The notes beneath the pieces are model-generated. The model did no database searches. It was not told the DNA's origin and was given only the letters and a program-made list of their open reading frames with translations. Below, in pieces: positions 4,734-63,245 of a DNA stretch of 64,000 nucleotides. Position 1 is the first letter of the stretch. Every line of letters begins with the position of its first letter. Source of the DNA: an uncultured virus (IMG/VR IMGVR_UViG_3300042273_000539) (Duplodnaviria > Heunggongvirae > Uroviricota > Caudoviricetes). Where the stretch lies: the IMG/VR virus record IMGVR_UViG_3300042273_000539. One strand, 5' to 3'. A program made the translations under genes and the position numbers.

Positions 4734-5810
4734 TTAAATTTTATAAATAGGGCATTCCCTACAACCAAATTTATTACAAGACTTTGTAGCAAGAAGTTTA
4801 TTTCTAAATTGATAAACTCTTGGGCTATTCCAGACATTCTCTATGAAATTCTTATGTTCTATAACTGAAATACCAGTTTCCCATCCTTCTGTTCCTTCTG
4901 TAAAACTACATGGGAAAAACTCTGCATCTACATTAATATAAGAACTTTCCAAAGTGCTTTCACAAGGCATTATCATACCTTTATACATTTCATATTCTAC
5001 ATCATTGAGAGAATGGAAAAACTTCAAAGAAGAACAACTATCAAATCCATAATTTATCTCCTTTTCCTTACAAAGGGATACAAGAGTATTAAATTTTTCT
5101 TGCTCCAAGGCATGGAAACGTTCTCCTCTTCCCTTTGTTTTCAATGACAAAAATACAATAGCATTAAGATTAGAAAGGCGAGGGTCAGAAGAAATGTCTT
5201 TTACAGTTTCTAATGCTCTCTCAAAAGTTTCTTCTGAAATCATCATATGGATATTTATTTGGTTCATCCCTCTGTCGGTAAGTTTCTTTACAGAATCATA
5301 ACAAGCATCTTTGTTTGCATACCGAGAAATAGCAACAGCTCCACAGATTGAAGCAAGTTTATCTGCTGTCTCATCTGTTATTTGCGCTACGGTAATATTA
5401 GGAACAACTCCATTATCTCTTGCATACTGCATAATGGCAAAAGTGTCTGGATTAGTTTCTGCCTTACTATCTGCCCCAAAAGCAATTTGTGTCAAGGTTT
5501 TAGGAAGAGCTTCAAACACTTTTTTGAAAGTATCTAATGTCATGTGTTTGCCGTTAGGGTTATTAGATTTATAGCAGAAAGGACAAACCACACCATCTAC
5601 ACCAGTACAAGAAGTAGTTATTTCTATGTCAGCAATAGTGGGTCCTGGGAATAGTTCAGCGTCTTCTTCATGTGTCTTGCCCCAAGTAATCATATTTCCA
5701 TTTTTTTTGTTAAAAGAATAGTTAGCGTTTTCAGATTTTAGGACTTTCCCTCCATCACTTTCTACGACAGTAAAATCCTTATACCTATACACCCTTGTCT
5801 TTCCGTTCAT
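4734..5810 (-). CDS. Radical SAM protein with C-terminal SPASM/Twitch-like domain
   Basis: IEITTSC-x7-CPFC cluster motif; C-terminal PCES...FFPCSF...CxxxxCxxC; likely start MNGKTR at 5810, after the upstream stop at 5818. Confidence 0.85.
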   Translation of the reverse strand: MNGKTRVYRYKDFTVVESDGGKVLKSENANYSFNKKNGNMITWGKTHEEDAELFPGPTIADIEITTSCTGVDGVVCPFCYKSNNPNGKHMTLDTFKKVFEALPKTLTQIAFGADSKAETNPDTFAIMQYARDNGVVPNITVAQITDETADKLASICGAVAISRYANKDACYDSVKKLTDRGMNQINIHMMISEETFERALETVKDISSDPRLSNLNAIVFLSLKTKGRGERFHALEQEKFNTLVSLCKEKEINYGFDSCSSLKFFHSLNDVEYEMYKGMIMPCESTLESSYINVDAEFFPCSFTEGTEGWETGISVIEHKNFIENVWNSPRVYQFRNKLLATKSCNKFGCRECPIYKI

Positions 5811-7212: not shown

Positions 7213-8618
7213 ATTTTACTAAAATCCGTATGTATCATATAGCTGTACGCCTCTGCGTATGCTTTATTCACCGATGATAGAGCAGAAGAAAATCCTTTTC
7301 CGTAAGTATTTCCTGCATTCATAGTAGAGATAAAAGCACTTATATCTTCAGCAGTAGCCCCGACATCATTAAAGAAAGTAGATACGTTTGCTACTTCTCG
7401 TAATGAAGTGTTATCAAATACGAATTCTGTTCCTTCTCCTTGTGTTTTTATATATTCTGCAAGTTCTACAATATAATAGGTTCTCATGCCAAACCCTTTC
7501 ACTACGTTTCTCATGCTTGATTGTATTTCGCTATAGTTATGAAAAATCTGGTCTGGTGTAATGTTATTGTCATAGTTAAATTTAAATGAAGCTATTATTT
7601 TTTCTGCTAAATTTTTTCCATTTAATCCAAGTTCATTTACGTTTCTTGTTAGAACATCCACTTGTTTATTAACATCCATAAAAGCAGAAACAGGGTTTTC
7701 ATAGTTTAATATGAAATCACTAATCATACTATTTGCCAAAAGGGTCCATGCTCTAGGCGACATAGTAGATGAAACTTCATATTCATTTTCCAGTGGTTTA
7801 GGTTCTAAAAACGGAGCATCTGGCTTCATAGTGTCTATGTAGACATTTATTAAATAGTTTAGTATGATGTTAGGTATTCTGGTTGGAAAGTCCAGCACGC
7901 GCCCGCTATGGAGCACTGGGTAAGGATTTAGAGCGAAGCTATCAAGCCAACTTGGTAAATCATATTTTAAATATAAAACTCTATGCCATCTTTCGGCTGT
8001 GGCTATATCAAAAGTATTTACTTGGTTTGTTTCAGTAGAACCGTCTTGCTCTCTCATGTTTCCGGCACCCACGATTACACATCTTTTAGGTAATCTGTAT
8101 TTTTCACTTTTCCCTGTCTTTTCATTAAAGTCAGCAAACCCACCAATCTCTCCATTAAGCACAAGGTTCATGATTGCCGCCATGCTCTCTGTATCTGCTT
8201 TGTTAAATTCATCCAGAAAAAGAACCCAAAGCCTTTCATCATCACTAGGAGGTAGAATAGTAGGACTAGCTAATTTAACTACCTTACTTCCATCATCTTT
8301 TGAATGTAGATAAGGGAATCCTTGGAGTTCTTCAATGGGAACTTTCTGTGGCTCTATTTTATGGAATATGGCTCCACTTTCTTCTGATATGCTTTTTACT
8401 ATCTCTGTTTTACCTATTCCGGTGGGTCCAAAGATAAACACAGATGGCCTGGTGCCATCCAGTGTGAGATTAGTTTTTGCTATATTAATAAGCCTTTTAA
8501 GTTCTTCTTTTAATTGAGAATAATTTACAGTTGTTTCAGGAATACTGTATTTTTTAAAACTATCATTTAAAATAAAACTCTTTCCAATTGCTTTTCTTGC
8601 TAATGTGATACTATCCAT
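7209..8618 (-). CDS. MoxR-like AAA+ ATPase
   Basis: Walker A GPTGIGKT, Walker B LFLDEFN, AGN sensor, SPRAW; overlaps the VWA gene by 4 nt. Confidence 0.85.
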   Translation of the reverse strand: MDSITLARKAIGKSFILNDSFKKYSIPETTVNYSQLKEELKRLINIAKTNLTLDGTRPSVFIFGPTGIGKTEIVKSISEESGAIFHKIEPQKVPIEELQGFPYLHSKDDGSKVVKLASPTILPPSDDERLWVLFLDEFNKADTESMAAIMNLVLNGEIGGFADFNEKTGKSEKYRLPKRCVIVGAGNMREQDGSTETNQVNTFDIATAERWHRVLYLKYDLPSWLDSFALNPYPVLHSGRVLDFPTRIPNIILNYLINVYIDTMKPDAPFLEPKPLENEYEVSSTMSPRAWTLLANSMISDFILNYENPVSAFMDVNKQVDVLTRNVNELGLNGKNLAEKIIASFKFNYDNNITPDQIFHNYSEIQSSMRNVVKGFGMRTYYIVELAEYIKTQGEGTEFVFDNTSLREVANVSTFFNDVGATAEDISAFISTMNAGNTYGKGFSSALSSVNKAYAEAYSYMIHTDFSKI

Positions 8619-16913: not shown

Positions 16914-16938
16914 AAATAAGTGGGGTTTCCCCCACTTA
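16914..16938 (-). terminator. Intrinsic terminator after the DUF2828 gene
   Basis: TAAGTGGGG-AAA-CCCCACTTA followed by a T run on the minus strand. Confidence 0.75.
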
Positions 16939-18372
16939 CATGAAAAGTCTTTCTACTGGTGAATATCTTTCTCCGTTTATTACCTCAAGCATGAAGGTTT
17001 CTGGGGAGCACCCCTCGGAAACGGCAAACTTGAAAACAGAAGGAGAAGACCCAGAAACAAGAACTGTGTTGATTTCGTCCTTGGAAACTGGAACATTGTT
17101 TTGTCTAGAATTTACATTCCAGAATACAATTTTTGGTATAGTATAACCGGCAAGGGCATACTTTTCTTTGATTGCTTCATAGTTAGTAACAGAAAAGTTG
17201 CCTTTCCTTCCATAACTAGAACTAGTGGCTTCATCAAACTCCATATCAGATATGATATATATAGTTTCTGGCATTTCTTCTTGTGGAACTTTTTCAGCTA
17301 GACAGATAGAAAGAATAGTTCTGAAAGCCTTAATAAGGTCAGTATTCATATCCCAGTTTGCCCGAGATATATTCCTCATTTTTTCTCCCAAAGTTTTTCC
17401 TCTTACCTGTTCTACACTTGGGTTTCCACTGAAAGTCATAAAACTTCCGTTAAATCTTCCTTTGTTCCTTTCTGCAAAATACAAAGCCAAAGATATAGAA
17501 ACAGCTATTGGCAATCCAGCCATAGAACCAGATACATCTGCCATTACGATAGCATTTTTGCCATTGGTAAAGTCAGGCAAATTATCCCATAGAGCAGTTG
17601 CCTCTTTATCGTTTATTTTGCCTTCCATCAATCTGGTATAGATCTCATAAGGGTATAGTACAGAAGCATTTATTTTTGCCTCTCCACTCTTGACTTTATT
17701 GATATAAGCTCCAAATCTATCAGTATCATTTCTTCCAAAAGCCTTATTATAGTTAAGCATAGCCTTTGAAGGAACGTGTTCATAGTTGATTTCGTCCCAA
17801 TCTTTTGCACACATCTTGGTTTCTACAAGATTAAGTTTAGCCCGAAGAGCAGAAAGAGCCTTCCTGTATTGTCTTGGGGTAAGCCCCATATACCTTGCGA
17901 TTGCTTCAGCTTCTTTGTTAGAAGATCCACCAACAGAAGGCATATACTTTTCCAAAAGGGTAGGTGTTTTTTCTCTGATGTCTCTTTTGAAGACAGCAGA
18001 AACAAACTCTTCATATTCATCGTGAGTCATTACTTCAAATACATCCTTCCAAGAACCGTAATAAGACATTAGCTTAATAAGTTCAGCCTTTGGAGCATCT
18101 TTATATTTATTCAAAAGCCAGCGAGTAGCAACTCTGAAAAATCTCTTTTCTCCAAGTCCTCCCCTACAATCTCTGATATAGAAAAGGCACTTCATAGCAA
18201 GTTGAGGATTTTCTTTAAAAGCATTGGAAAACATATTGATAATTTCGCTATCTTGGCGAGTTCTCATAGAGCCTCCCATTGCGAACATATCAACCAAAGC
18301 GGATTTGGATGTGCTTCTTGTCAAAGCGCCATTTTCAGTAAGTGTAAAGTCATTAAGTGTTTTCCAGAACAT
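16936..18372 (-). CDS. TROVE/Ro60-like protein with VWA domain (DUF2828-like)
   Basis: TENGA, RDCRGGLGE, YGSWKD, LYPYEI, DVSGSM, SDMEFD, VFWNV motifs. Confidence 0.85.
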   Translation of the reverse strand: MFWKTLNDFTLTENGALTRSTSKSALVDMFAMGGSMRTRQDSEIINMFSNAFKENPQLAMKCLFYIRDCRGGLGEKRFFRVATRWLLNKYKDAPKAELIKLMSYYGSWKDVFEVMTHDEYEEFVSAVFKRDIREKTPTLLEKYMPSVGGSSNKEAEAIARYMGLTPRQYRKALSALRAKLNLVETKMCAKDWDEINYEHVPSKAMLNYNKAFGRNDTDRFGAYINKVKSGEAKINASVLYPYEIYTRLMEGKINDKEATALWDNLPDFTNGKNAIVMADVSGSMAGLPIAVSISLALYFAERNKGRFNGSFMTFSGNPSVEQVRGKTLGEKMRNISRANWDMNTDLIKAFRTILSICLAEKVPQEEMPETIYIISDMEFDEATSSSYGRKGNFSVTNYEAIKEKYALAGYTIPKIVFWNVNSRQNNVPVSKDEINTVLVSGSSPSVFKFAVSEGCSPETFMLEVINGERYSPVERLFM

Positions 18373-19912
18373 AGTTATCCTCCTACATTATTTATTATAA
18401 TGTGTTTTTATTGTTTTTTTGTTATACCTTATTATACATTTTTTTTAGTTTTTTGTCAAGGAAATATTTGACCGTTAAAATTAAAGTCCTGTTTGTAGTA
18501 TTTCATCGCTGTCAAAAAGACTTCCCTCTGTGAAATCATTTTCGTCTTCAGGCTCATTTTGAAATATTCCGAGAGAATCTAAATCTATACAACTATTTAT
18601 CCAACTTAAAATACCTGGAACTCTTATGTCATAAGTGCCAAGTGAATCTTGAAGTATTCTTGAAGTGTCATGGTCTATTTCAATATTCCATTGCCTTCCT
18701 GCTCTAATCCCTTCTACGTTATCAGAGTAGGAAGATAATACATCGTTAATATGTGTACTTCGGCATGGATTTTCACCATTTATTTCAATAGACCAAGTTT
18801 TATCTTCTTTGTCAATAACTGGAGCTTCTTTTTCTTCTTCTAAATCTTCTTCAGTTAAAGATAAAATAGTTTCAGCTATTTCTTTATTGCTATAATATAT
18901 GAAAATCATAGAATTTCTAGAGTTTTTTAAACTATTTTGAATAAATTTGAAATTTTTAATTTTTTTAGTATGGTACTCTTTTAATATTTGCCTTTTTATG
19001 CTTGAAAGGCTTCTTACCCTAAATTTACATCTTTGACACGTAGAATTCGGAAATCCAAAACTACACCCATGTGCTTGCCTAATCACAAATCCATTATCGT
19101 CATACATCAATAAAGAACATATAGAAAACATAGAACGATCTTTTATAACTTCTTTTACTGTTTTAACAGTTTCTTTAAATAAATCAGAATCTCTTTCTAA
19201 CATCTAATGCCCCCTGTAAAATTTTCTTCCATACATTTATTAATTTCTTCTTGAGTTATTTCTTGCAAATATTCAAATATTTCATCATCATCCCAATAGT
19301 ATAAATAGTCATGCTTATAGACATTAGTTAAATAGTCAATAATATAGCCATGGTCTTTACTTTTTATCGTGTTTTCTCTTATTATAATTTTCTTTATTTT
19401 TTCCAAAGAGTTTATACGCATAGGGCAATTATTACAACCACTATGAAAGATGCTATTGCAAGAGGATATAGCTCTCCCTTCAAAAATATATTTCTCACTC
19501 TCAAAAATACAATAAGCTTTTCTTCCAGAAATAATATATGAAGTTAACAATAAAAATTTTTTATATCTATTACTGCTCTTGTCAATCAAAGTTTTCTCCT
19601 TTTTCGTATATCACTATTATACTATTTTTTTAAAATTTTGTCAATTTTTTGTTAATAAAAAAAGAGTGGTAAAAACCACTCTATAAAGAAGAAAAATATT
19701 CTTCTATCTCTTTTAAGCTCTCAAGTATAATTTCTAAAGGTGTATTATAATATATAGGCATCAACAAAGATGCCTCTCCCTTTTCGTCAAACATGAGAGT
19801 TATTCTATTATCCATATATACATATGGCTCTTCAAAAAATATGTCTTGGAGGTCTTCTCCCCAAACGGCATTAGTAGCATCAAATTCACTTGCCATATGT
19901 AATCTCCTGTTG

Positions 19913-19981
19913 TGGAGTATGAGGGAGTTGAACCCTCGTCTTGGCTATTCTATAGAATACCAATCTAATCCAGTATACCCC
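19913..19981 (-). ncRNA. Minimal tmRNA-like tRNA-like domain (69 nt)
   Basis: GGGGTAT/ATACTCC-A acceptor with G3.U70, unpaired D region ACTGGATTAGA, short closed helix, GAC plus T arm GAGGG-TTCAACT-CCCTC. Confidence 0.7.
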
Positions 19982-20308
19982 GTTGTTTATAAACTTTCAA
20001 GATTTTTCATTAAGTTATAAAAGAACTTAACATGCTTTTCAAATTCTTCTGGTCGTTTTTCTTTTACTTCCTCTAACGATTTTATTAAAGAACTCCACCT
20101 CATTCCATCAAAATGCTCTTTTTTAGTTTTTACTATCTTTGCATCTTTTTTTTGAGCCTCATCCCAAATAGTATTTTCAATAGAAGAAGTTACACTGTCA
20201 ACAGTTTTCCACACTTCATAGGTAAACGGATTTTCTTTAAGTCGATCCATAGATTTTTTTAAAGACTTCCAACACATAGCGTAAATTTCGTCATAAGTGA
20301 TTTCCATA

Positions 20309-20998
20309 TTATTCTCCGATTCTTATAATATCATTATACAATAATCTAAAATTATTGTCAACTATTTCATCGGCATGAAAATGTCCGAAATACCATTTTT
20401 TGAAACCACCTTTTACTTGACGTTTAATCCCTTCAAGAGCAACTTCAGTAGGACAATGAAGGTTATATAACTTCTTACTCTTTATACGTCTCCGCACGGA
20501 AAACGGACAGGTGTGTGTAATGATGTAATCAACCGGCTGACTCTTAATAACATTTTCTGCCAATATTATTTCATCATCATTAGGAACTTCATCATACCAC
20601 CAGTTTATATTAGGAATTCTACTCATTCTATCAGTAGAGATAGCTCCTCCAAAAGTAAGCATAGTATCACCATTTATCACATAAGGTCTTCCCCTTCGTA
20701 AATGATAAATGCCCTCTCTTACTACACCAACTTCATTATCAAATCGGTATTCCATTTGAAGGTTTTTAAGCCTATCAAAGTTTTCATGGTTTCCATCCAC
20801 AAAGCAAATGGTACATCCATTAGTATTACTTTGGAGTTCATCAAGTCTTTCTTTTTCAAAAGAAGTTTCTTTCTCTGAAAATATATAACCAAAATCACCG
20901 CAGACAATAAGAAAATCATCTTTGGTAAATTCTGGTATGTTTTTTTTGTATAATGGAAACCTTCCATGTAAATCACCTGTGATGTATGTTTCTGCCAT
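20309..20998 (-). CDS. Calcineurin-like metallophosphoesterase
   Basis: GDLHG, GDFG, GNHE, THT, GHFH. Confidence 0.9.
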   Translation of the reverse strand: MAETYITGDLHGRFPLYKKNIPEFTKDDFLIVCGDFGYIFSEKETSFEKERLDELQSNTNGCTICFVDGNHENFDRLKNLQMEYRFDNEVGVVREGIYHLRRGRPYVINGDTMLTFGGAISTDRMSRIPNINWWYDEVPNDDEIILAENVIKSQPVDYIITHTCPFSVRRRIKSKKLYNLHCPTEVALEGIKRQVKGGFKKWYFGHFHADEIVDNNFRLLYNDIIRIGE

Positions 20999-21465
20999 TA
21001 TTTATCTGTTTCTATCTCTTCATCTTTTTGCTCTAAATCTTTTTGATGTTCTTCTGCTTCTTCAACAGAATCAAAATACACATTTACTGGAAATCTTTCC
21101 AGGGAATAAACAGTTCCATCTTCTAGAAAAATAGTGTTTGAAGAACCACCTTCGGGAATAGTTTCAATAACAAAGTTTTCCCCACTTTCAAAATGGCAGT
21201 TTCCTACAACTTCCACTTCTTCAATTTCGTATCGTTCGCCTTCTTCTTTTTTTACTTTTTTTGTATTTTCACATTGTGGGCAAATATAAGCAAGTTTTTT
21301 ATTTTCTTGTGTATATTTGTCAAATACTTCTACTTCTATATACCCTTTTGCTTTACAGTTAGGGCAATCTTCTTCAATTGAATATGGCTTTTTAGCCACT
21401 TTAAATTTCTTCATTTTTTCTCCTATACAAGTATATATGTATCTTTTCAAACAAAAAAGGCGCAC
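20998..21465 (-). CDS. DnaJ-type zinc-finger-containing hypothetical protein
   Basis: CPNCKAKG and CPQCE; the real start is probably the internal MKKFK. Confidence 0.55.
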   Translation of the reverse strand: MRLFCLKRYIYTCIGEKMKKFKVAKKPYSIEEDCPNCKAKGYIEVEVFDKYTQENKKLAYICPQCENTKKVKKEEGERYEIEEVEVVGNCHFESGENFVIETIPEGGSSNTIFLEDGTVYSLERFPVNVYFDSVEEAEEHQKDLEQKDEEIETDK

Positions 21466-22656: not shown

Positions 22657-22660
22657 AAGT

Positions 22661-22755
22661 GGTGTCGGTAGGATTCGAACCTACATAGCAGGATTGCAGA
22701 CGATGCCTGCACTCTCTTGGTCGTCTGCGGAGTTTGCCAATTTCTCTACGACACC
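22661..22755 (-). ncRNA. tRNA-like RNA with enlarged, possibly pseudoknotted anticodon arm
   Basis: GGTGTCG/CGACACC acceptor, normal D and T arms, 8-bp stem with 17-nt loop. Confidence 0.65.
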
Positions 22756-22758
22756 GTT

Positions 22759-22840
22759 GGACGATAAGGGAATTGAACCCTTATTTTAGTGGCTCCACTG
22801 TGGGTTTTACTACACTAACGCTACCATTGCTTAATCGCCC
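22759..22840 (-). ncRNA. tRNA-like RNA with enlarged anticodon arm
   Basis: GGGCGAT/ATCGTCC acceptor, T arm AAGGG-TTCAATT-CCCTT, TTAGTG/CACTAA stem enclosing 21 nt. Confidence 0.6.
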
Positions 22841-24537: not shown

Positions 24538-24549
24538 TTTTATATCCTT

Positions 24550-24620
24550 TGGGAAAGAAGGGAATTGAACCCTCACCAGAAAATTTAGAGTTTTCTGTGC
24601 TACCGTTACACCACAAACCC
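24550..24620 (-). tRNA. Amber-suppressor-type tRNA (anticodon CTA)
   Basis: Loop CTCTAAA in stem AGAAAA/TTTTCT; D arm as in the local Gln tRNAs; acceptor has three U-U mismatches. Confidence 0.7.
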
Positions 24621-24930
24621 ATTCTATTATACATGTATTTTTATATAATTGTCTTTGTCAATAATTATTTTAATATCGTTAGGATAATCCCATCCGTCTC
24701 CAGCATAGAAAGCAATACTTTCTATATCTTCATATTTTATAGAAGATAAAGAATTATCATCTATAATTAGCATCCTTTCCTTGTTAAAGTCAATTAACAA
24801 CCTTCCAATAGAGGCAGTTACTTCTTGATTTTCTCTGAAACGAACAGTATTTTTTCTAAAATATTGTTTAAAAGAACTTAATACTTCTTCTACTTTCATA
24901 AAACGAACCTCTTTACATAATATTCTTTTT

Positions 24931-27343: not shown

Positions 27344-27415
27344 TGACGATGGTTGGAATTGAACCAACTAAATCAACCTTATGAGAGTTGCACCTAGCCA
27401 TTTGGTTTCATCGCC
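27344..27415 (-). tRNA. tRNA-Met/Ile2(CAT)
   Basis: Loop CTCATAA. Confidence 0.8.
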
Positions 27416-27423
27416 ATAAAAAA

Positions 27424-27975
27424 GGAACCAATAAAAATTATAGACCTTCATCTTACTATCCAATACTTCTTGAATATTAGGTTACTTGACGATAGAACCT
27501 GTGCTATGGGTAATTACTCCTTAGCATTTCTAAAGGGGATTTCTCCCGAACTCAAGGTGGGAATGGCTACCCACAAATTTCATCCGACTTTCAGGTTGTT
27601 AATCATCCAATATGTTTAAGAACCTGTGGAATTGGACTACTTTACGATTATGCACAACTTATACACAGATTTCTCTGTTTCAACCACAGTCCCTTCTTGC
27701 TTTTGACTTTTCCAGCAGTATCAAAGTTGTCAAGCCCGACTTACTGGATGGCTAGCGTATCGCCTATTGCGAAGGGGTCAGCATAATGACCTTTTCAAGC
27801 GTATTTTCAAGCACCTGTCTCTTGCTTTAACCTTTTTGAGGTTTATCCATCTAATCTTACGATTTTGACAGTTGGTTAAGTCAGCACGTATCCGTGATAA
27901 CTCACCAAAGCATTCAAGACAGTCCAAGCAAGGTTGTTAGCCTTCATACACTTGGGTATAACATTTAATGATTCC
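27424..27975 (-). ncRNA. Large ornate ncRNA (about 552 nt; ROOL/GOLLD-like context)
   Basis: ORF-free, own TTGACA/TATAAT promoter (27992-28020), pairing ends GGAATCA/TGGTTCC, many hairpins, within a tRNA cluster. Confidence 0.6.
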
Positions 27976-28028
27976 AAAAAACTTATACTTTATTATAACA
28001 AAATTCTAAAATTTTGTCAATTTTCAAA

Positions 28029-28426: not shown

Positions 28427-28498
28427 TAGGCACGGACGGAGTTGAACCGTCATTTAAACTTTATCAGAGTTTTGTCTTCACCCTTGGACCACGCACCT
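28427..28498 (-). tRNA. tRNA-Ile(GAT)
   Basis: Loop CTGATAA. Confidence 0.85.
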
Positions 28499-28505
28499 AT
28501 AAAAC

Positions 28506-28619
28506 TGGCTACATTTGTAAGCGTTCTACCAATTGAACTATTGTTTATTTCTAAACAAGTTGGATTCGAACCAACAATTCTGGATTACAAGTCCTAAATT
28601 TTTTTGCTGTTAGTAGCCA
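28506..28619 (-). ncRNA. ACAGCAA-stem RNA 6 with circularly permuted tRNA domain (YrlA-like)
   Basis: TGGCTAC/GTAGCCA stem; anticodon-like GGA-CTTGTAA-TCC, T arm GTTGG-TTCGAAT-CCAAC, acceptor TTGTTTA-GAAA-TAAACAA, D arm GTTC-AATTGGTA-GAAC. Confidence 0.8.
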
Positions 28620-32129: not shown

Positions 32130-32271
32130 ATAAAACATGGGTGTGCACACCCAAGGTAGGTCTCGCTCTACTAGCGTTGGTTCCTGTAGCCACCAAAAAG
32201 CACACCATGTACGAAAGCGCTTTAAACGTCATGGGTTTCAGCGTAAAAGGGGTGTCCACAGTTACGCTTTG

Positions 32272-32348
32272 TGGACCGTGAGGGAATTGAACCCTCCTGA
32301 ATATCCTCGGTGCAAACGAGGCGACCACGCCTTGCAGTCCCACAGCCC
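32272..32348 (-). tRNA. tRNA-Ala(TGC)
   Basis: Loop TTTGCAC, G3.U70. Confidence 0.85.
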
Positions 32349-35571: not shown

Positions 35572-36834
35572 TTATAATACATATTCTAACAATTCTTCTT
35601 TTGACGTAATGCCTTTGTTTATCTGTTTATCAAATAAATCATCAAGTATTATTTTGAATACTTTTCCAGGCTTCATTCCCAAAGCTATCAAATCATTTCC
35701 AGTTACCAAAGGAGCTACAAAGGTTTTTTCATCCTTACGAAGTTCCAGTATGGCATCTTTTATTTCAGTGTTCTTCTCTAATGCTTTTTCAGTCATGCTG
35801 TCTGCAACAGAAAGTTCTGCAAGTTTTACTGCTCTTTCGTCTTTTGCTAAAGCTATTCTCTTACTTTTTTTCATTTCAAGAAAATGCTTTACTTTCATAT
35901 GATTTTCAACTAACCATAGAATATCTTCTGCTTCCTTGTTGGAAACTTTAAGCATTTTTAATATAGGAAGAGCAAGCATAACAGAATCAGCTTCATGACC
36001 TTTAGAAGTTATTTTCCCATCTTCATTTTTAGTGGTAGTTAACTTTCCAAAGTCATGAAAAAGTCCAGCCAAGTTCAATACAAAATCATCAGTCTGTAGG
36101 TTTTTGATAACCTTCAAAGTATGAATCCATGTATCTCCCTCTGGGTGCCAAACAGCATCCTGTGGAACATTTTTCAAAGCAGAAGCATACGGAAAAATTT
36201 CATCTATAACATGTAAGTCATACAATAATTCTACAAATTTATGGAATTTATTTCCTGTTTTCTTTATCTCTGCCGTTATTCTTTCTGCACTAATGCTATG
36301 AAGTAAATGTTTGTTTTCTTTAATGGCAGAAACAGCCTCTTTATCAAGAGTAAATCCGTAAACAGAAGCAAATCTTATAGCACGTAGAATTCTTAAATGG
36401 TCTTCTAGAATTCTATCTTCTGCTTTTCCAATAAACCTTACAGTTCCAGTTTCTAAATCTTCAATTCCATAATGAAGGTCTATAATCTTATCTTTAATCG
36501 GGTCAAAATATAATGCATTAAAAGTAAAGTCCCTTCTGTTAGAGTCTTCTTCAAGAGAAGAACTAAAATGAACACTTTTAGGCTTTCTACCGTCATAAGA
36601 ACTTTCAGTTCTAAAAGTAGCTACCTCAACCCCGCTTACGAGAGATATGCCGAAACTTTCTCCCACAAAAAAAGAGGTTTCAAAAATTTTTGAAACCTCT
36701 TCAGGAGTAGCGGAAGTCACTACGTCAATATCTTTTGGAGGTTTCCTTAAAATCATATCTCTTACGCATCCACCTACGAAGTAGGCTTCAAATCCATTTT
36801 CTTGTAGTTTTTTTACGATGTCAATTTCTTTCAT
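35572..36834 (-). CDS. cca: CCA-adding tRNA nucleotidyltransferase with HD domain
   Basis: VGGCVRD, DIDV, RRDFTFNAL, EDHLRILRAIRF, HPEGD..HT, HDFGK. Confidence 0.9.
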   Translation of the reverse strand: MKEIDIVKKLQENGFEAYFVGGCVRDMILRKPPKDIDVVTSATPEEVSKIFETSFFVGESFGISLVSGVEVATFRTESSYDGRKPKSVHFSSSLEEDSNRRDFTFNALYFDPIKDKIIDLHYGIEDLETGTVRFIGKAEDRILEDHLRILRAIRFASVYGFTLDKEAVSAIKENKHLLHSISAERITAEIKKTGNKFHKFVELLYDLHVIDEIFPYASALKNVPQDAVWHPEGDTWIHTLKVIKNLQTDDFVLNLAGLFHDFGKLTTTKNEDGKITSKGHEADSVMLALPILKMLKVSNKEAEDILWLVENHMKVKHFLEMKKSKRIALAKDERAVKLAELSVADSMTEKALEKNTEIKDAILELRKDEKTFVAPLVTGNDLIALGMKPGKVFKIILDDLFDKQINKGITSKEELLEYVL

Positions 36835-38252: not shown

Positions 38253-38804
38253 TTAGTTTTTTGTCAACTCTTTTATCTTACCCCTAATAACATCAACCAG
38301 CTTTTGTTGCGTGCCTGAAAGTTTTCTTCCTGATTCAAGTTTATTAAGGATAAATACTGTTTCTCTAATGTATCTATCTCTAAAATATTTATCAGCCACT
38401 TCTAAATCACTTACGTTGTCAAGTCTGTCTGCTAGTTTTATAACTAAAGCCCAATCAGACATACCAATCATTTTATCAGAAAGATACGTCTCTTTGCCTT
38501 TCTTCTTTATTTCTTCTCCATCAGAGGTAAGTTCTTTTACTAAAGAAGCCACTAAACCACCAAACAATTTCTCTAAATCTTCTTCTGTAGTATTTGTATC
38601 TTCAATAGTATCATGAAGTAAAGCAGAAGAAATAAGTTCATCAATTTTGTGACTGTCTTTGTATTTTCTTACAATTTCAGCAACTCTTTTAGGATGCTCC
38701 ACATAAGGGACTCCTTCAAATTTTCTTTTTTGCCCTTTGTGTTTTTCGGTAGCAAAATCTTTGGCTTTTTGTTCTATGCTTTCAAGAATTTCTTCTAATT
38801 TCAT
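38253..38804 (-). CDS. HD-domain (p)ppGpp hydrolase-like protein (SpoT/Mesh1 type)
   Basis: HKGQKRK, PYVEHP, LLHDTIEDT, KLADRLDN. Confidence 0.85.
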   Translation of the reverse strand: MKLEEILESIEQKAKDFATEKHKGQKRKFEGVPYVEHPKRVAEIVRKYKDSHKIDELISSALLHDTIEDTNTTEEDLEKLFGGLVASLVKELTSDGEEIKKKGKETYLSDKMIGMSDWALVIKLADRLDNVSDLEVADKYFRDRYIRETVFILNKLESGRKLSGTQQKLVDVIRGKIKELTKN

Positions 38805-44724: not shown

Positions 44725-45891
44725 TCAAGTAGCTTTAAAGTTCCATATAGGTTTTAAAGTTCTTACAATTTCAACAGATGGCTCCAAGTACCTTATAATT
44801 TCTTCTGGGTCTTTATAAGCCATAGGTGATTCGTCAAGAGTGCTTAAACCTATACAAGAGGATTTAATACCTTTCATCTGCTCTTCAAACTCTTCCATAG
44901 AAAGCGTTTTCTTTGCTTCACTTCTTGACATTTTTCTACCAGCACCATGAGGAGCAGAAAAATTCCATTCTTCATTTCCTTTTCCAGTGCCTATGATAGC
45001 ACCATCTTTCATTGAAAGAGGTATTATAACTTTCTCTCCTTTTTGAGCAGAGATAGCCCCTTTGCGGATTATACCATTTTTCAAGTCAATATAGTTATGT
45101 ACAGACTCAACTATATTATCATAACCATACTTTTCTGATATATCTTCTATAATAATATTTCTATTTATAGAAGCATATTCCTGTGCTACCATCATATGCT
45201 CTAAATACTTTGAAAAATTATCACCTTCAAGCCATTCTAGACCGCTAGTAGTTTTAGGCAATGCTTCTATAGCAAGTCGCAATTCTTCGCCTGTATATTT
45301 CTGCTTCAAAGTGTCAATATCATTTTTTCTGTAGTTTATACTCTTTGCCATATCCTGATGAAATTCTGCTATTTTTTTGCCAAAATTTCTTGAACCAGTA
45401 TGAGCTAAAAGCCAAAATTTACCTTCATTATCTTCATCTATTTCAATGAAGTGATTTCCACCACCAAGAGTGCCTAAAGATTTCATAACCCTATGAAAAC
45501 CCTGTCCTGTTTCACGGCAAACTTTCAAAACCCTTTCGTGAAAATCTTTGTCAAATTTTCTTGCATCTTTATCTCTAACACTAGAACCAGTAGGAATATT
45601 TTCTTTTGTAAATTTCTCTATGTCGTCTAAATCAAATTTCTTTGACAGACGAACAGCCAAAACTCCACATCCAATATCTACTCCTATCAAGTTAGGCACA
45701 ACCTTATCAGTAAGTTTTGCAGTATACCCTATTACGCACCCAGCGCCTGCGTGAACGTCAGGCATTACCCTTACATGTGCGTCTTTTGCCATAGGCTGAT
45801 TCAATAAAGAGATTATTTGTGATATTGCTCCTTCTTCTGCAAAATCATTATAGATTATTGCGTTTTCATACTTTCCTTTTAACTCTATCAT
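44725..45891 (-). CDS. rtcB: RtcB RNA ligase
   Basis: MPDVHAG, GVDIGCG, GTLGGGNHFIE, HTGSR, HNY, RKGA, SAPHGAGR, DESPMAYK. Confidence 0.95.
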   Translation of the reverse strand: MIELKGKYENAIIYNDFAEEGAISQIISLLNQPMAKDAHVRVMPDVHAGAGCVIGYTAKLTDKVVPNLIGVDIGCGVLAVRLSKKFDLDDIEKFTKENIPTGSSVRDKDARKFDKDFHERVLKVCRETGQGFHRVMKSLGTLGGGNHFIEIDEDNEGKFWLLAHTGSRNFGKKIAEFHQDMAKSINYRKNDIDTLKQKYTGEELRLAIEALPKTTSGLEWLEGDNFSKYLEHMMVAQEYASINRNIIIEDISEKYGYDNIVESVHNYIDLKNGIIRKGAISAQKGEKVIIPLSMKDGAIIGTGKGNEEWNFSAPHGAGRKMSRSEAKKTLSMEEFEEQMKGIKSSCIGLSTLDESPMAYKDPEEIIRYLEPSVEIVRTLKPIWNFKAT

Positions 45892-59492: not shown

Positions 59493-62400
59493 TCAACCGC
59501 AAGTAGAATATCCACAACTGCTACAAACCGTACAGCCACCCTCAAAAACCATAGTTCCACCACATTCAGGGCATTCTGCTTTATTAGAAGAAATCATTTC
59601 TCCATCAGGTATATAATACTTCAATACCCTCGCAATGGCTTTTTGGAACGTCCCAAACTTCTTTACTTTATTCATCTGTGCGACAATAAACTCCAATGGA
59701 ACTTGATGCCTCATCAATAAAGAAAGCAATCTACACATAGAAGCATAATCATCATTAAACACCTCTGCTAAATTTTCTACTACTATCTTACTTCGCTTGC
59801 CTTCAATAAGCAAATCATATCTACTGGCTTTTTCAGCACCATCATATACCTTAACAATACTACCTTCTTTAAATCTCTTTAAATCAACTATATCATCATG
59901 ATTATCTGTATAGAAGATTTCATATGGTGCGTTATTGTAAGGTGAATCTGGATTTTTACCAACTAGGACAATAACAGGTTCTTTATTAACTGTAATATCA
60001 TAGATATCGCAAGGCAAGCTTTCTGGACGTTTCATAGCATTTTTCAATACCTCAATATTTCTCCATCCATCATCTTTCTTTGTAGAAAGAATACCATCCA
60101 TAGAAGCACCTTCATGAAAAGAAGTAACTCCCTTCAATCCCTTTTTCCAGGAATACATGAATATATCTTTATATTGCTCTAGTGTAGTTTCAAAAGGCAT
60201 GTTAATGGTTTTACTGATACTGTGGTCTATCCAGTATTGAAGTGCTGCCTGTATATCTATTCCTTCTGTAATAGATACATTATGGGATACCACTACATAA
60301 TCAGGAAGATCATTTCCTTCTTTGTATCCTGCGTACTCTATGTATTCCAGCCATCCATCATCATATACAGTTTGTGTTTTTGTGGTATCATCATCCTGTC
60401 TTATAGACCTATCATACTGCAAAGAGAAAATAGGCTCAATACCAGAAGAACAGTTATTTCCCAAAGACAAAGAAGTGGTGTTATGACTAACATATGAATT
60501 TGCAATATAAGTTCTTCCGTCTGGAACTTCCAAGTCTAAAGTGTAATTATTACTATCGCTTATAGCAACAACTTCATCAATAAACAATCCCTTTCCAAAA
60601 TAATCATTAAGATAATCTACTTTCTCTTTTAAATCTTTTTTAATATATCTCTTTGCTCTCTCTTCTCCGATAGAGCCATATTTTTTCCAATAAATCCTGT
60701 AAGATAAATTGTTTGAATAGCTACCTTCATCAAGAGATTTATCATAAACTGAAATAGATGAATTAATACCTACTGCTCTCATTATAATAGCTAATTGTTG
60801 AGCATTTTTTTCGGAATAAGTATCAATATACATTGTCCCTCTGCTGCTTGAACCATCACCATAAAAATATCCATCAATATAAGAAAGGATACTTTCTTTA
60901 GAAGATAATCTTACTGCTTTTGGAATTTCTATTCCTAATGCTTTATTTTTTATTAATCCATTAATTTCTAAAAAGTTAAGTAATCTTTGAGAAGAAATAT
61001 ACACACTGTCACAATTTTTACCATTATCAACAACTTTAGAATTCCAATTAAATAAATTCTTAATCAGTTCAACAACTTCTATTGATTCATTTGTTAAATG
61101 ATTTAAGTTAATTCTTATGCCTTTGTTGTGAGTGCTACCATCTGCATTATAAAGTCCTAAAAAGAAAGCAAATTCAGCGGTAATCTCTTCCGGTAATCTT
61201 ATATCTTTTTCATTAGGGTGTTTTGCATAATCTGGAAGTATAAGCCGTTTATTATCTTTCTTTTCATATCCTCCAATTTTATAAACTATATTATCTCCAA
61301 CAGATAGGTCTTCAAGTTTCTTCCAGTCAAACGAAGTTCCATTTAACACTTTAAACTTATGATTTGGAGTTCCTTCTAAATTTACACCACTCTTTGTAGA
61401 TATTTTTTTAGTAGGTTTAAATCCATTTATAAAAGTATTCCTTATTCCTTCGTACTTTTCATATTCGTTTAATGCTCCAAGATTTTCTTGTGGTATCCAA
61501 GTTCCATCTTCATAGTTTTTATAATTAGGAATTAATTCTTCCAATGTGTATAAACCATCGTTAGTTGATACAATACTTTCTGGAACAAGACATCCGGTTG
61601 GTGCCGTGGTTAATATACCAATGTTTCTTAACCCGACTTCTTGAATTCTTTTCTGTGTTCCTTCACTTAACCTTGTAATAAATCCAGAATGCCCAATATG
61701 ACTATCATAAGCAGGAAACGAGCCTTTTTGTAATGCTAAATCAACAGAAGCATTATACGCACTTTCTGCTAGGACATTTCCCATTTCATATACAAAATCT
61801 ACACTTTCTTTACTTCCATATCTAATCTTTAATTTCAACAAAGCATCGCCAAGTCCTGTAATTCCAAGACCAATCCTTCTCCATGCTTTTGATATTTTCT
61901 CAATTTTTTCAAGAGGATAATCAGTAGCATCCAAGACATTATCCAAGAACCTTACTCCAAGTCTTGCCATGTTTTTAAATTCTTCCCAATCAAATTCTGC
62001 ATTCTCTGTAAATTGATTTTTTACCAATTTAGAAAGATTGATAGAAGATAGACAGCAAAGAGAATAAGAAGGCATTACGATTTCCATCAGTTATTGTTAA
62101 GCTCTTTATCTTAACTCTCCGATTTTCACCGGAGTGTCGGACTATATCTTCACCCATAATATGGGGCAGGGCGCTCGTGGGAAAATTACCTACCGTTCTG
62201 GTATCGTTTCCTAGTCTCTGAACCTTGCAGAGTATTCCTACTCTACCTTGGATGCTGATTAGCATATTCTTTTTCAAGAATTTAGCTTTCCAGCAGTTCA
62301 CCCTGTTTTTTACTTGAGGCAAGATTATTTACCACAAGGATTGCATCTATCTACCTTAAAAGCGTGAGAAGCATTGTTTCCTGCTTCCACTGTATCAAGG

Positions 62401-63245
62401 AACAAAGCACCTGGCTCATTATACCACCAAGCCTGTTTAGTCATTCTTTCATACAAATCTTTTGCTCTTACAGTTTTATACACCTTTACTAAAATAAGAT
62501 CTGTGTCGTCAACAGTATATCCTTGGTCTATACAATATTGTAAATCAAAGTTGTTTTTAACCCATTTTGTTTTACAATTTTCTTCGCTTTCAAATTTCAT
62601 AAGAGGGAATACCAAATCCCAGTCTTCATCATTTTCAACTGCTCTCATAAACTCATCAGTAATACCTACTGAAATATTAAATTGAGTAAGTTTATTATTC
62701 TCTCTTCCTTTCTTATATTCAATAAATTCTTCAATATCTGGATGGTCTACATTAAGGATACAAATGTGCGCCCCTCTACGACCACCTCCTGTATGTATAG
62801 CTTTAGCAGAAGTATCAAATACCTCTATAAAACTCATAACGCCAGAACTTTCTCCGCCTTTGCTAATCAATGCGCCTTTAGGACGAAGTTTTGAAGCGTT
62901 AAATCCAACACCTCCACCCATTTGACCGATGATAGCATCTTCGCTTACTGGCCCATAAATGCCAGGCATTGAATCCTCTAAATCAATAGTAAAACAGTTG
63001 TTGTAGTTTTTCATTCTGGAATAAGGTCTAGCATTTGCCAATATTCTTCCCGCTGGGATAAATTTACCAGAAATCATAGCTTGATAGAAATACTCTTGCC
63101 AAATGTTTTTTAAATTATCATCCGGTTCTACAGACGCTATTTCTTCTGCTACTCCTTTTAAGATTTCTTCTACTGTTTTTTCTCCGTGAAGAGCATATTT
63201 TCTAAAAAATATCTCCCTTGAAATATCCTGTTTAAATTCAAACAC
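59493..63245 (-). CDS. nrdJ: Class II (B12-dependent) ribonucleotide reductase; exons 63245-62331 and 62084-59493
   Basis: PAGRIL, NCF, GGGVG, RRGA, NPCG|EI, RRIGLG, TAPTG..SSGIEP, ISKTIN, C-terminal CxxC..CG. Confidence 0.9.
60480..61592 (-). mobile_element. Intein with LAGLIDADG endonuclease (371 aa) in nrdJ
   Basis: APTG|CLVPES...TPNH...LGLYNADGS...GYFYGDGS...VSHN|TTS. Confidence 0.92.
62085..62330 (-). mobile_element. Group I intron (246 nt, no intact ORF) in nrdJ
   Basis: Exon ends in U with P1 partner GCCTCA, terminal G, AACTGCTGGAAA, AATCAGCA, TTCAGAGACTA, AAGATATAGTCC; splicing restores NPCGE. Confidence 0.92.

Follow-up and report, generated by a model that had tools for sequence, protein, structure and literature searches.

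Trans-translation, carried out by transfer-messenger RNA (tmRNA) together with SmpB, is the main ribosome-rescue and protein-tagging system of bacteria. The window analyzed here, the whole 64,000-nt (64-kb) stretch of DNA from an uncultured virus (IMG/VR record IMGVR_UViG_3300042273_000539), carries on its minus strand, at 19913-19981, a 69-nt gene that very probably (about 0.9) specifies a tmRNA reduced to its tRNA-like domain (TLD), here called a mini-tmRNA. A phage molecule of this kind is already on record: the entry 'Mycobacterium phage DS6A (TLD only)' was given by Hudson, Lau and Williams 2014 (PMC4131195), is held in the tmRNA Website as tmID 11587 / Phage__Mycobacterium.9, and is repeated in the 2025 tmRNA database paper (PMC11915505). 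The DS6A element lies at 28478-28557 of JN698994, a GenBank record without an RNA feature at that place. A DS6A-like TLD-only molecule is reported to inhibit tmRNA strongly in E. coli, perhaps by SmpB titration (Mao 2009, cited in PMC4131195 and PMC11915505).

Reduction to the TLD is also reported from organelles. tmRNAs without a coding sequence (CDS-less), about 65 nt long, are described in jakobid mitochondria and Mallomonadaceae plastids (Jacob et al. 2004; PMC11915505), where natural genes reduced to the TLD persist with SmpB (PMC11915505). These organellar genes replace the resident tmRNA, whereas the window virus adds an RNA on top of the full tmRNA of its host, so that competition is expected rather than replacement. 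SmpB is reported to bind the elbow of the TLD, and helix 2 to mimic a long variable arm (PMC3968760, PMC3022190). Laboratory TLD constructs (SmpB-TLD crystals, Gutmann 2003, Bessho 2007) have the same parts as the window element, namely acceptor stem, D-loop, T arm and a loop-closed helix-2 stub, and SmpB binding is reported for them (PMC3022190, PMC3968760); they are engineered truncations of bacterial tmRNAs, whereas the window element is a natural gene. For a tmRNA truncated to its TLD, PMC3895274 (citing Shimizu and Ueda 2006) reports that kirromycin blocked the transfer of the peptidyl group, which implies that such an RNA can accept a peptide when kirromycin is absent. tmRNAs in a survey of huge phages are reported as annotated with ARAGORN (PMC7162821), and no paper found in the literature search presents TLD-only tmRNAs as frequent in phages.

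The DS6A and window elements are alike in being phage-encoded and of standard order, with a 7-bp acceptor stem, G3:U70, A73, a stemless D-loop, a single helix-2-like arm and a T arm, and in having neither a tag frame nor an encoded CCA. Both also miss the Rfam tmRNA cut-off (43.2 bits for DS6A, 39.1 for the window element). They differ in length (80 versus 69 nt) and in the inner arm, which in the window element is a simple hairpin of 9 bp capped by a UAUA loop and in DS6A has a GAAAACC-hairpin element; UUAGA and GAC in the former stand against GGUCGA and CAC in the latter. The window phage, with its low G+C content (about 0.33) and many tRNA genes, is unrelated to DS6A. The bacterial one-piece tmRNA (SsrA, RF00023) shares the TLD ends, the identity elements for alanyl-tRNA synthetase (AlaRS) and the D-loop and T-loop motifs. 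Compared with SsrA, the window element is without 316 of 374 model positions, which include the pseudoknots, the resume codon, the tag open reading frame (ORF) and the stop codon; since this mRNA-like part is missing, it cannot template a tag. The window element is a further, very compact member of a kind already described for DS6A, and the novelty implied by an earlier note on this DNA, made from the letters alone, was too high. What the new member adds is compactness at 69 nt with a plain hairpin arm, clear expression signals, and a context of CCA-adding enzyme and RNA-repair genes.

Parts, fold and model matches of the element

The gene and its parts are all on the minus strand:

19913..19981, minus strand: TLD-only (tag-less) mini-tmRNA gene, 69 nt including the discriminator A
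19975..19981, minus strand: 5' strand of the acceptor stem, GGGGTAT, with G3 at 19979; 7 of 7 pairs with 19914-19920
19964..19974, minus strand: stemless D-loop-like segment ACTGGATTAGA, which contains GG and aligns to the tmRNA consensus cuGGaUUCGA
19941..19963, minus strand: helix-2-like hairpin of 5 bp, a bulged A, 4 bp and a UAUA loop, taken from the minimum-energy fold
19938..19940, minus strand: GAC linker preceding the T arm, aligned to the GGACG consensus of Rfam tmRNA
19921..19937, minus strand: T arm GAGGG-TTCAACT-CCCTC, 5 bp with loop UUCAACU
19913..19920, minus strand: 3' strand of the acceptor stem, ATACTCC, followed by A73; U70 at 19916, A73 at 19913

Read from 19981 to 19913, the strand is GGGGTAT / ACTGGATTAGA / TTGGTATTC-TATA-GAATAGCCAA / GAC / GAGGG-TTCAACT-CCCTC / ATACTCC / A, and the segment-by-segment parse in the earlier note matches it exactly. 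The element has all the marks of a tmRNA TLD that the note lists, namely G3:U70, A73, a stemless D loop and, preceding the T arm, GAC. Within the D-loop, the segment CUGGAUUAGA equals the Rfam tmRNA consensus cuGGaUUCGA except for one C-to-A difference. The gene encodes no CCA, being followed by CAA.

The minimum-energy fold (-21.2 kcal/mol) consists of a 7-bp acceptor stem, a single central hairpin and the T arm, with a z-score of -2.35; three of 200 shuffled sequences were equally stable. The helix-2-like hairpin stands in place of the entire mRNA-like domain and the pseudoknots, and the spacing from D-loop to GAC is only 23 nt. No mRNA-like domain, resume codon, tag ORF, stop codon or pseudoknot is found in the element, and because its whole inner arm measures 23 nt, no tag reading frame can fit. 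Nor does it have the features of a tRNA, as there is no D stem and the central hairpin has a loop of 4 nt instead of a 7-nt anticodon loop. The gene order is standard and continuous, not permuted into two pieces.

A comparison with tmRNA covariance models, which had been proposed as a check, supports this assignment. RF00023 matches 19910-19981 over model positions 1-374 with 39.1 bits (E 2.9e-14, 501 bases searched), 15 nt replacing 316 of the 374 model positions, and with E-value reporting the best-scoring family of the clan is tmRNA rather than tRNA. The score lies below the curated gathering cut-off of 47 bits, which is why the element is missing from a scan at gathering thresholds; over the 64-kb window that scan returned 35 tRNA matches and one ROOL RNA. 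ARAGORN called no tRNA, tmRNA or tag peptide at 19913-19981 and 34 tRNA genes elsewhere in the window.

Two further covariance models were built from TLD-only RNAs themselves. MAFFT misplaced the 5' acceptor strand where linker lengths differ, and a subset of seven sequences with model-based realignment was used instead. Model R1, made from these seven with the window element among them, gave four held-out viral mini-tmRNAs 62-66 bits and the DS6A element, which was excluded from the model, 46.8 bits. On the window it scored the element at 68.8 bits (as a training sequence), ordinary tRNAs at 27 bits or less and the phage tRNA-Ala at 19.2 bits. Model R2, a leave-one-out model from 11 other TLD-only RNAs without the window sequence, gave the element 55.4 bits (E 1.4e-11), the sole match in the window at E <= 1e-5. 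Rfam, R2 and the covariation described below thus agree with the earlier reading of the element as the tRNA-like domain of a tmRNA with alanine identity and without a tag frame.

Relatives, covariation and alanine identity

A blastn search with 19600-20400 for closer relatives gave no match among GenBank phages, and both a strict RNA pattern and the protein of the upstream ORF (ORF106) retrieved only a near-identical IMG/VR fragment of 46.9 kb (G001). In this nearest record the mini-tmRNA copy and its flanks are identical, and it therefore adds no variation. A looser pattern for TLD-only RNAs (TGGATTNGA, 15-45 nt, GACNNNGGTTCNANTCC) found 36 loci in the viral contigs of IMG/VR: 26 TLD-only RNAs with 11 distinct sequences among them (the window's own type included), five permuted two-piece tmRNAs, and five tRNAs or other sequences. 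The small contig L011 has a permuted two-piece tmRNA at 90-380. Ten viral mini-tmRNAs reach 55.7-69.9 bits on Rfam tmRNA, above the cut-off of 47. Under a strict filter, 28 more distinct TLD-only sequences of 61-81 nt were present among the matches listed in genome and metagenome contigs, 27 of them from metagenomes and one from the contig of a metagenome-assembled genome (L131). The 120 genome-contig loci listed were mostly archaeal and bacterial tRNAs, and L131 alone passed the TLD filter.

The window element, the ten viral mini-tmRNAs and DS6A form a family of 12 members. Acceptor stem pairs are kept in 84 of 84 cells, with compensatory changes at four of seven pairs (positions 4-7), and T stem pairs in 60 of 60, with compensatory changes at four of five. 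In the central helix, all 36 cells of the outer three pairs remain paired, with U-A, C-G, A-U and G-C exchanges. In the 12-row model alignment, which is fitted to the model and so leans toward structure, helix 2 is paired in 93.3% of cells with both-sided changes in all five modelled pairs; 98.0% of all cells pair, against 70.6% in shuffled alignments (none of 500 shuffles as good), and both-sided changes occur at 13 of 17 pairs. When partners are slid by one to three columns, pairing falls to 39-57%. Anchor-based tallies for the 12 members, independent of the model alignment, agree with it. TGG, T and GA of the D-loop are invariant in 12 of 12 members, and the linker before the T arm is GAC in 11 of 12 and CAC in DS6A. 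The window element belongs to the minimal size class and is without the inner GAAAACC-hairpin element that DS6A and the majority of 77-82-nt members have.

G3:U70 and A73, reported as the identity elements for AlaRS (PMC3968760), are each present in 12 of the 12 aligned members. A wider set was collected with a filter that demands TLD spacing, at least six of seven acceptor pairs and a 5-bp T stem and leaves positions 3:70 and 73 free. Among the 276 pattern loci listed (viral, genome and metagenome), it contains 43 distinct candidates. A73 is present in every one of the 43 and G3:U70 in 40; of the three without G3:U70, two resemble other tmRNA forms read in the wrong register. Acceptor positions 4-7 vary freely with compensation while the G:U wobble is kept, which therefore points to selection for AlaRS recognition. 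Judged by this conservation, the near-invariant identity elements indicate that charging of TLD-only RNAs is selected. They also suggest that the mini-tmRNA goes as far as the ribosome, where it could add one alanine without a tag.

Locus and genome context

The mini-tmRNA gene fills a 90-nt gap between two same-strand ORFs without a known family, inside a short putative transcription unit:

20333..20361, minus strand: promoter with the perfect sigma-70 consensus, TTGACA-17-TATAAT, matching at all 12 hexamer positions, at the head of the unit with the mini-tmRNA gene
19987..20307, minus strand: upstream ORF of 106 amino acids (ORF106), its stop codon 5 nt before the RNA gene
19681..19896, minus strand: downstream ORF of 71 amino acids, no Pfam or PHROG family
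19663..19682, minus strand: hairpin like that of an intrinsic terminator, 8 bp followed by a T run, at the end of the unit

ORF106 gave one marginal Pfam match below the cut-off and none in PHROGs. An AGGAG ribosome-binding site for the 71-amino-acid ORF stands at 19904-19908, 4 nt past the RNA gene. The promoter is one of 25 perfect TTGACA-N17-TATAAT sites in the window (317-57558), all on the minus strand, where 0.04 would be expected; most of the 25 share the extended motif TTGACAAAAAACTAAAAAAAT..TATAAT, and further sites include 18431-18459 and 19616-19644. By their sequence they look like an early-promoter family of the phage. This arrangement predicts that the mini-tmRNA, in the manner of phage tRNAs, is cut from a short ORF-RNA-ORF message with strong transcription.

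Near-identical DNA occurs in wastewater metagenome runs, and four runs were compared over 19000-21000. Run X9 has a DNA contig, about 95% identical, that extends over this whole interval. In a relative about 88% identical from run X10, a landfill metagenome, 19989 is joined to 20286 with 14 other letters between them; this relative is without ORF106 but keeps the side that bears the RNA gene. RNA library X23 contributes a contig over 19940-20196, which has a single difference and gives a weak hint of transcription, since DNA carry-over is possible and the contigs show no RNA ends.

In viral contigs, 240 relatives of the neighbouring metallophosphatase were found, and the best 80 of the 240 are 34-42% identical, with G001 at 100%. 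A TLD-type match occurs at only five of the best 80 of these 240 loci (G001, L054 and the trio L067, L069 and L072, whose matches share identical coordinates and scores), and no claim of synteny is made. L067, a tRNA-rich viral contig, has a full tmRNA at 5043-5461 with the tag AVEDTPEKQFSL* (ARAGORN). In L054, likewise tRNA-rich and viral, the TLD-type RNA at 8087-8210 is 124 nt long, carries an inner insert of 63 nt and gave no tag call. Around the family members, two of the 11 other loci show tRNA neighbours in the scanned flanks of about 300 nt.

The surrounding genome is strongly oriented, with 80 of 97 ORFs on the minus strand. Besides the 34 ARAGORN tRNA genes, three tRNA matches were found by Rfam only. 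CCA follows none of the 34, and the mini-tmRNA gene without an encoded CCA fits the same style. The enzyme that would complete such transcripts is encoded in the window:

35572..36834, minus strand: CCA-adding enzyme (tRNA nucleotidyltransferase); PolyA_pol 1.1e-32, PolyA_pol_RNAbd 1.1e-11 and HD 8.5e-6 (Pfam), PHROG 1.3e-77

Judging from these matches, it is likely to supply the missing 3' CCA of the mini-tmRNA. It belongs to a kit of RNA repair and processing genes spread through the tRNA region, all on the minus strand: cREC_REC (a cyclic-phosphate processing receiver), a Ro-like protein, the CCA-adding enzyme, an HD_4 hydrolase and an RtcB ligase (784-1200, 16936-18372, 35572-36834, 38253-38804 and 44725-45891). 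The Ro-like gene, a DUF2828/DUF7788/vWA 'RNA-binding protein' (phrog_850, 4.4e-137), lies 1.5 kb downstream of the mini-tmRNA on the same strand. Families of SmpB, RF-1-domain (ArfB), Pth (peptidyl-tRNA hydrolase) and integrase proteins were absent from the 98 window ORFs scanned, and no SmpB was found in G001. A separate coding piece, which the earlier note had proposed to look for, did not turn up either: the 64 kb hold no permuted or standard tmRNA family at gathering score, and G001 holds no full-length tmRNA, only the mini-tmRNA element.

Several other RNA genes share the tRNA region. A full-length ROOL RNA at 27422-27979 (minus strand, 236.2 bits, model 1-574) adjoins an Rfam-only tRNA at 27344-27415. 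The tRNA-Ala(UGC) gene at 32271-32348 (minus strand) is 78 nt long and has an unusual D region. A tRNA with anticodon CUA, an amber suppressor labelled Pyl by ARAGORN, lies at 24549-24621 (minus strand); stop-codon recoding was checked on account of this tRNA, but TAG read as sense is no more conspicuous in the window than TGA or TAA, and any recoding is not visible there. Two adjacent tRNA-like genes at 22758-22840 and 22660-22755 (minus strand) match Rfam tRNA with 33.6 and 43.8 bits, have no ARAGORN call and carry about 21-22 nt in place of the anticodon loop. The first of them, 83 nt long, has G3:U70, A73 and an arm motif, UAAAACCCACAGUGG, that resembles the 77-82-nt mini-tmRNAs; it scores 27.3 bits on R1 and, on these sequence features, could represent another alanine acceptor that has no anticodon. 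In a pattern scan its long form turned up only in G001, at a locus again without an ARAGORN call, and the six checked of 39 other loci were ordinary tRNAs. The window also encodes DNA methylases and an intein-bearing ribonucleotide reductase, whose large subunit is split into two ORFs (59493-62087 and 62325-63245, minus strand) about 240 nt apart, the downstream part having an intein with a LAGLIDADG domain.

Proposed action and rival explanations

The preferred reading, held at slightly better than even odds (about 0.55), is that the mini-tmRNA is a functional phage gene whose product would be alanylated, bind host SmpB, compete with host tmRNA and lower ssrA tagging. Every step is inferred from the sequence determinants of the element and the published behaviour of similar molecules. 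Transcription would start early from the consensus sigma-70 promoter, within the short ORF-RNA-ORF transcript, from which the mini-tmRNA would be excised like a tRNA. CCA would be added by the phage or host CCA-adding enzyme, and host AlaRS would charge the RNA with alanine through G3:U70 and A73. The mini-tmRNA could then bind host SmpB and, once charged, EF-Tu, and host tmRNA would face a competitor both for SmpB and for the ribosomes that stall on non-stop mRNAs. As there is no resume codon or tag frame, any chain accepted by the mini-tmRNA would gain a single alanine but not the ssrA degradation tag. Overall, host trans-translation and tagging would be damped during infection.

Several points weigh against this reading. 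The Rfam score of 39.1 bits stays under the curated cut-off, and the D-loop of the element reads UUAGA where most family members have UUCGA, with A for C, a change that may bear on SmpB binding. A phage SmpB or a full tmRNA may lie beyond the inspected 64 kb and the roughly 20 kb that G001 adds. In addition, the inhibition by the DS6A-like molecule is reported to occur 'whether or not chargeable' (Mao 2009, cited in PMC4131195 and PMC11915505); if charging makes no difference to inhibition, plain SmpB titration leaves the conserved alanine identity unexplained, which may point to tag-free rescue.

In that rival account, which is possible but on balance unlikely, the charged mini-tmRNA and SmpB would free stalled ribosomes for the benefit of the phage by adding a single alanine, the peptidyl-RNA being released by ArfB-type release or by drop-off followed by peptidyl-tRNA hydrolase, without marking for ClpXP-type proteolysis. 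The near-invariant alanine identity (40/43 and 43/43) implies that charging matters, and titration would not need it. The account also draws on the acceptance of a nascent chain by a TLD-only RNA in vitro, as implied by the kirromycin block reported in PMC3895274, and on the CDS-less tmRNAs that, according to PMC11915505, persist with SmpB in jakobid mitochondria and some plastids. It is opposed by the lack of a known termination route without a resume and stop codon, by the absence of ArfB/RF-1-domain and Pth genes from the 98 window ORFs scanned, and by the single experiment on such a molecule, which is cited in PMC4131195 as reporting inhibition of tmRNA. The two functional options offered in the earlier note, a decoy for trans-translation and a tag-free alanine donor, are still what appear from the sequence to be the best explanations, the decoy having a published precedent in the inhibition by the DS6A-like RNA.

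Other accounts move the element away from trans-translation or from function altogether. The RNA repair kit of the phage, with RtcB, cREC_REC, the CCA-adding enzyme, the Ro-like protein, ROOL RNA and at least 34 tRNAs, would be the setting for a decoy aimed at host anti-phage or RNA-turnover factors that recognise shapes like tmRNA or tRNA-Ala, for example tRNA- and tmRNA-cleaving toxins, the SmpB-like sensor domains of CoCoNuT systems, or RNase R. PMC11090510 reports SmpB-like domains in CoCoNuT systems and tmRNA as the commonest RtcB target; however, no specific link joins the mini-tmRNA to any defence gene, the conserved G3:U70 and A73 are not obviously needed for such a role, and tRNA neighbours are seen within flanks of about 300 nt at two of the 11 other family loci; this account is improbable. 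A functionless derivative of tRNA-Ala, or a decaying remnant of a full phage tmRNA, is more improbable again. The T arm shares 16 of its 17 bases with the phage tRNA-Ala(UGC), blastn of the element matches the 3' halves of T5-like phage tRNA-Ala at 93-94%, and the Rfam tmRNA score is below its cut-off. Yet the D-loop and GAC motifs are of tmRNA type, the best clan match is tmRNA rather than tRNA, and tRNA-Ala scores 19.2 bits under R1 against 68.8 for the element as a training member (55.4 under R2, built without it). All three helices are intact, the acceptor and T stems without mismatch, and the same architecture recurs with compensatory changes in dozens of unrelated lineages; the gene is tightly fitted between two ORFs inside a promoter-to-terminator unit. 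Least probable is a part as a Y-RNA-like partner of the Ro-like protein or as an attP-type fragment of host ssrA used for integration. The first idea rests on the Ro-like gene downstream and is opposed by the absence of any Y RNA family match at the mini-tmRNA locus even at E <= 10. For the second, the 3' ends of ssrA are reported as common phage integration sites (PMC11590407, PMC9004378), but the element is not a 3' fragment and has the two TLD halves, connected by a hairpin that looks designed, and the 98 ORFs scanned include no integrase family.

The competitive decoy charged with alanine remains the preferred reading for the single gene. By supplying nothing of tmRNA but its tRNA-like end, a virus would be a natural competitor of the tmRNA-SmpB system. 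A broader proposal, rather doubtful, is that tag-less mini-tmRNAs form a widespread class of early phage RNAs, charged with alanine, that enter stalled ribosomes and make host trans-translation tag-free or dead-end. They would have escaped annotation because ARAGORN and the Rfam cut-off both skip them. If this broader proposal holds, mini-tmRNAs would not simply soak up SmpB but would serve viruses generally to counter ssrA-directed proteolysis or host responses linked to rescue, and the 69-nt form would stand near the natural minimum for recognition by AlaRS, SmpB and EF-Tu and for entry into the ribosome.

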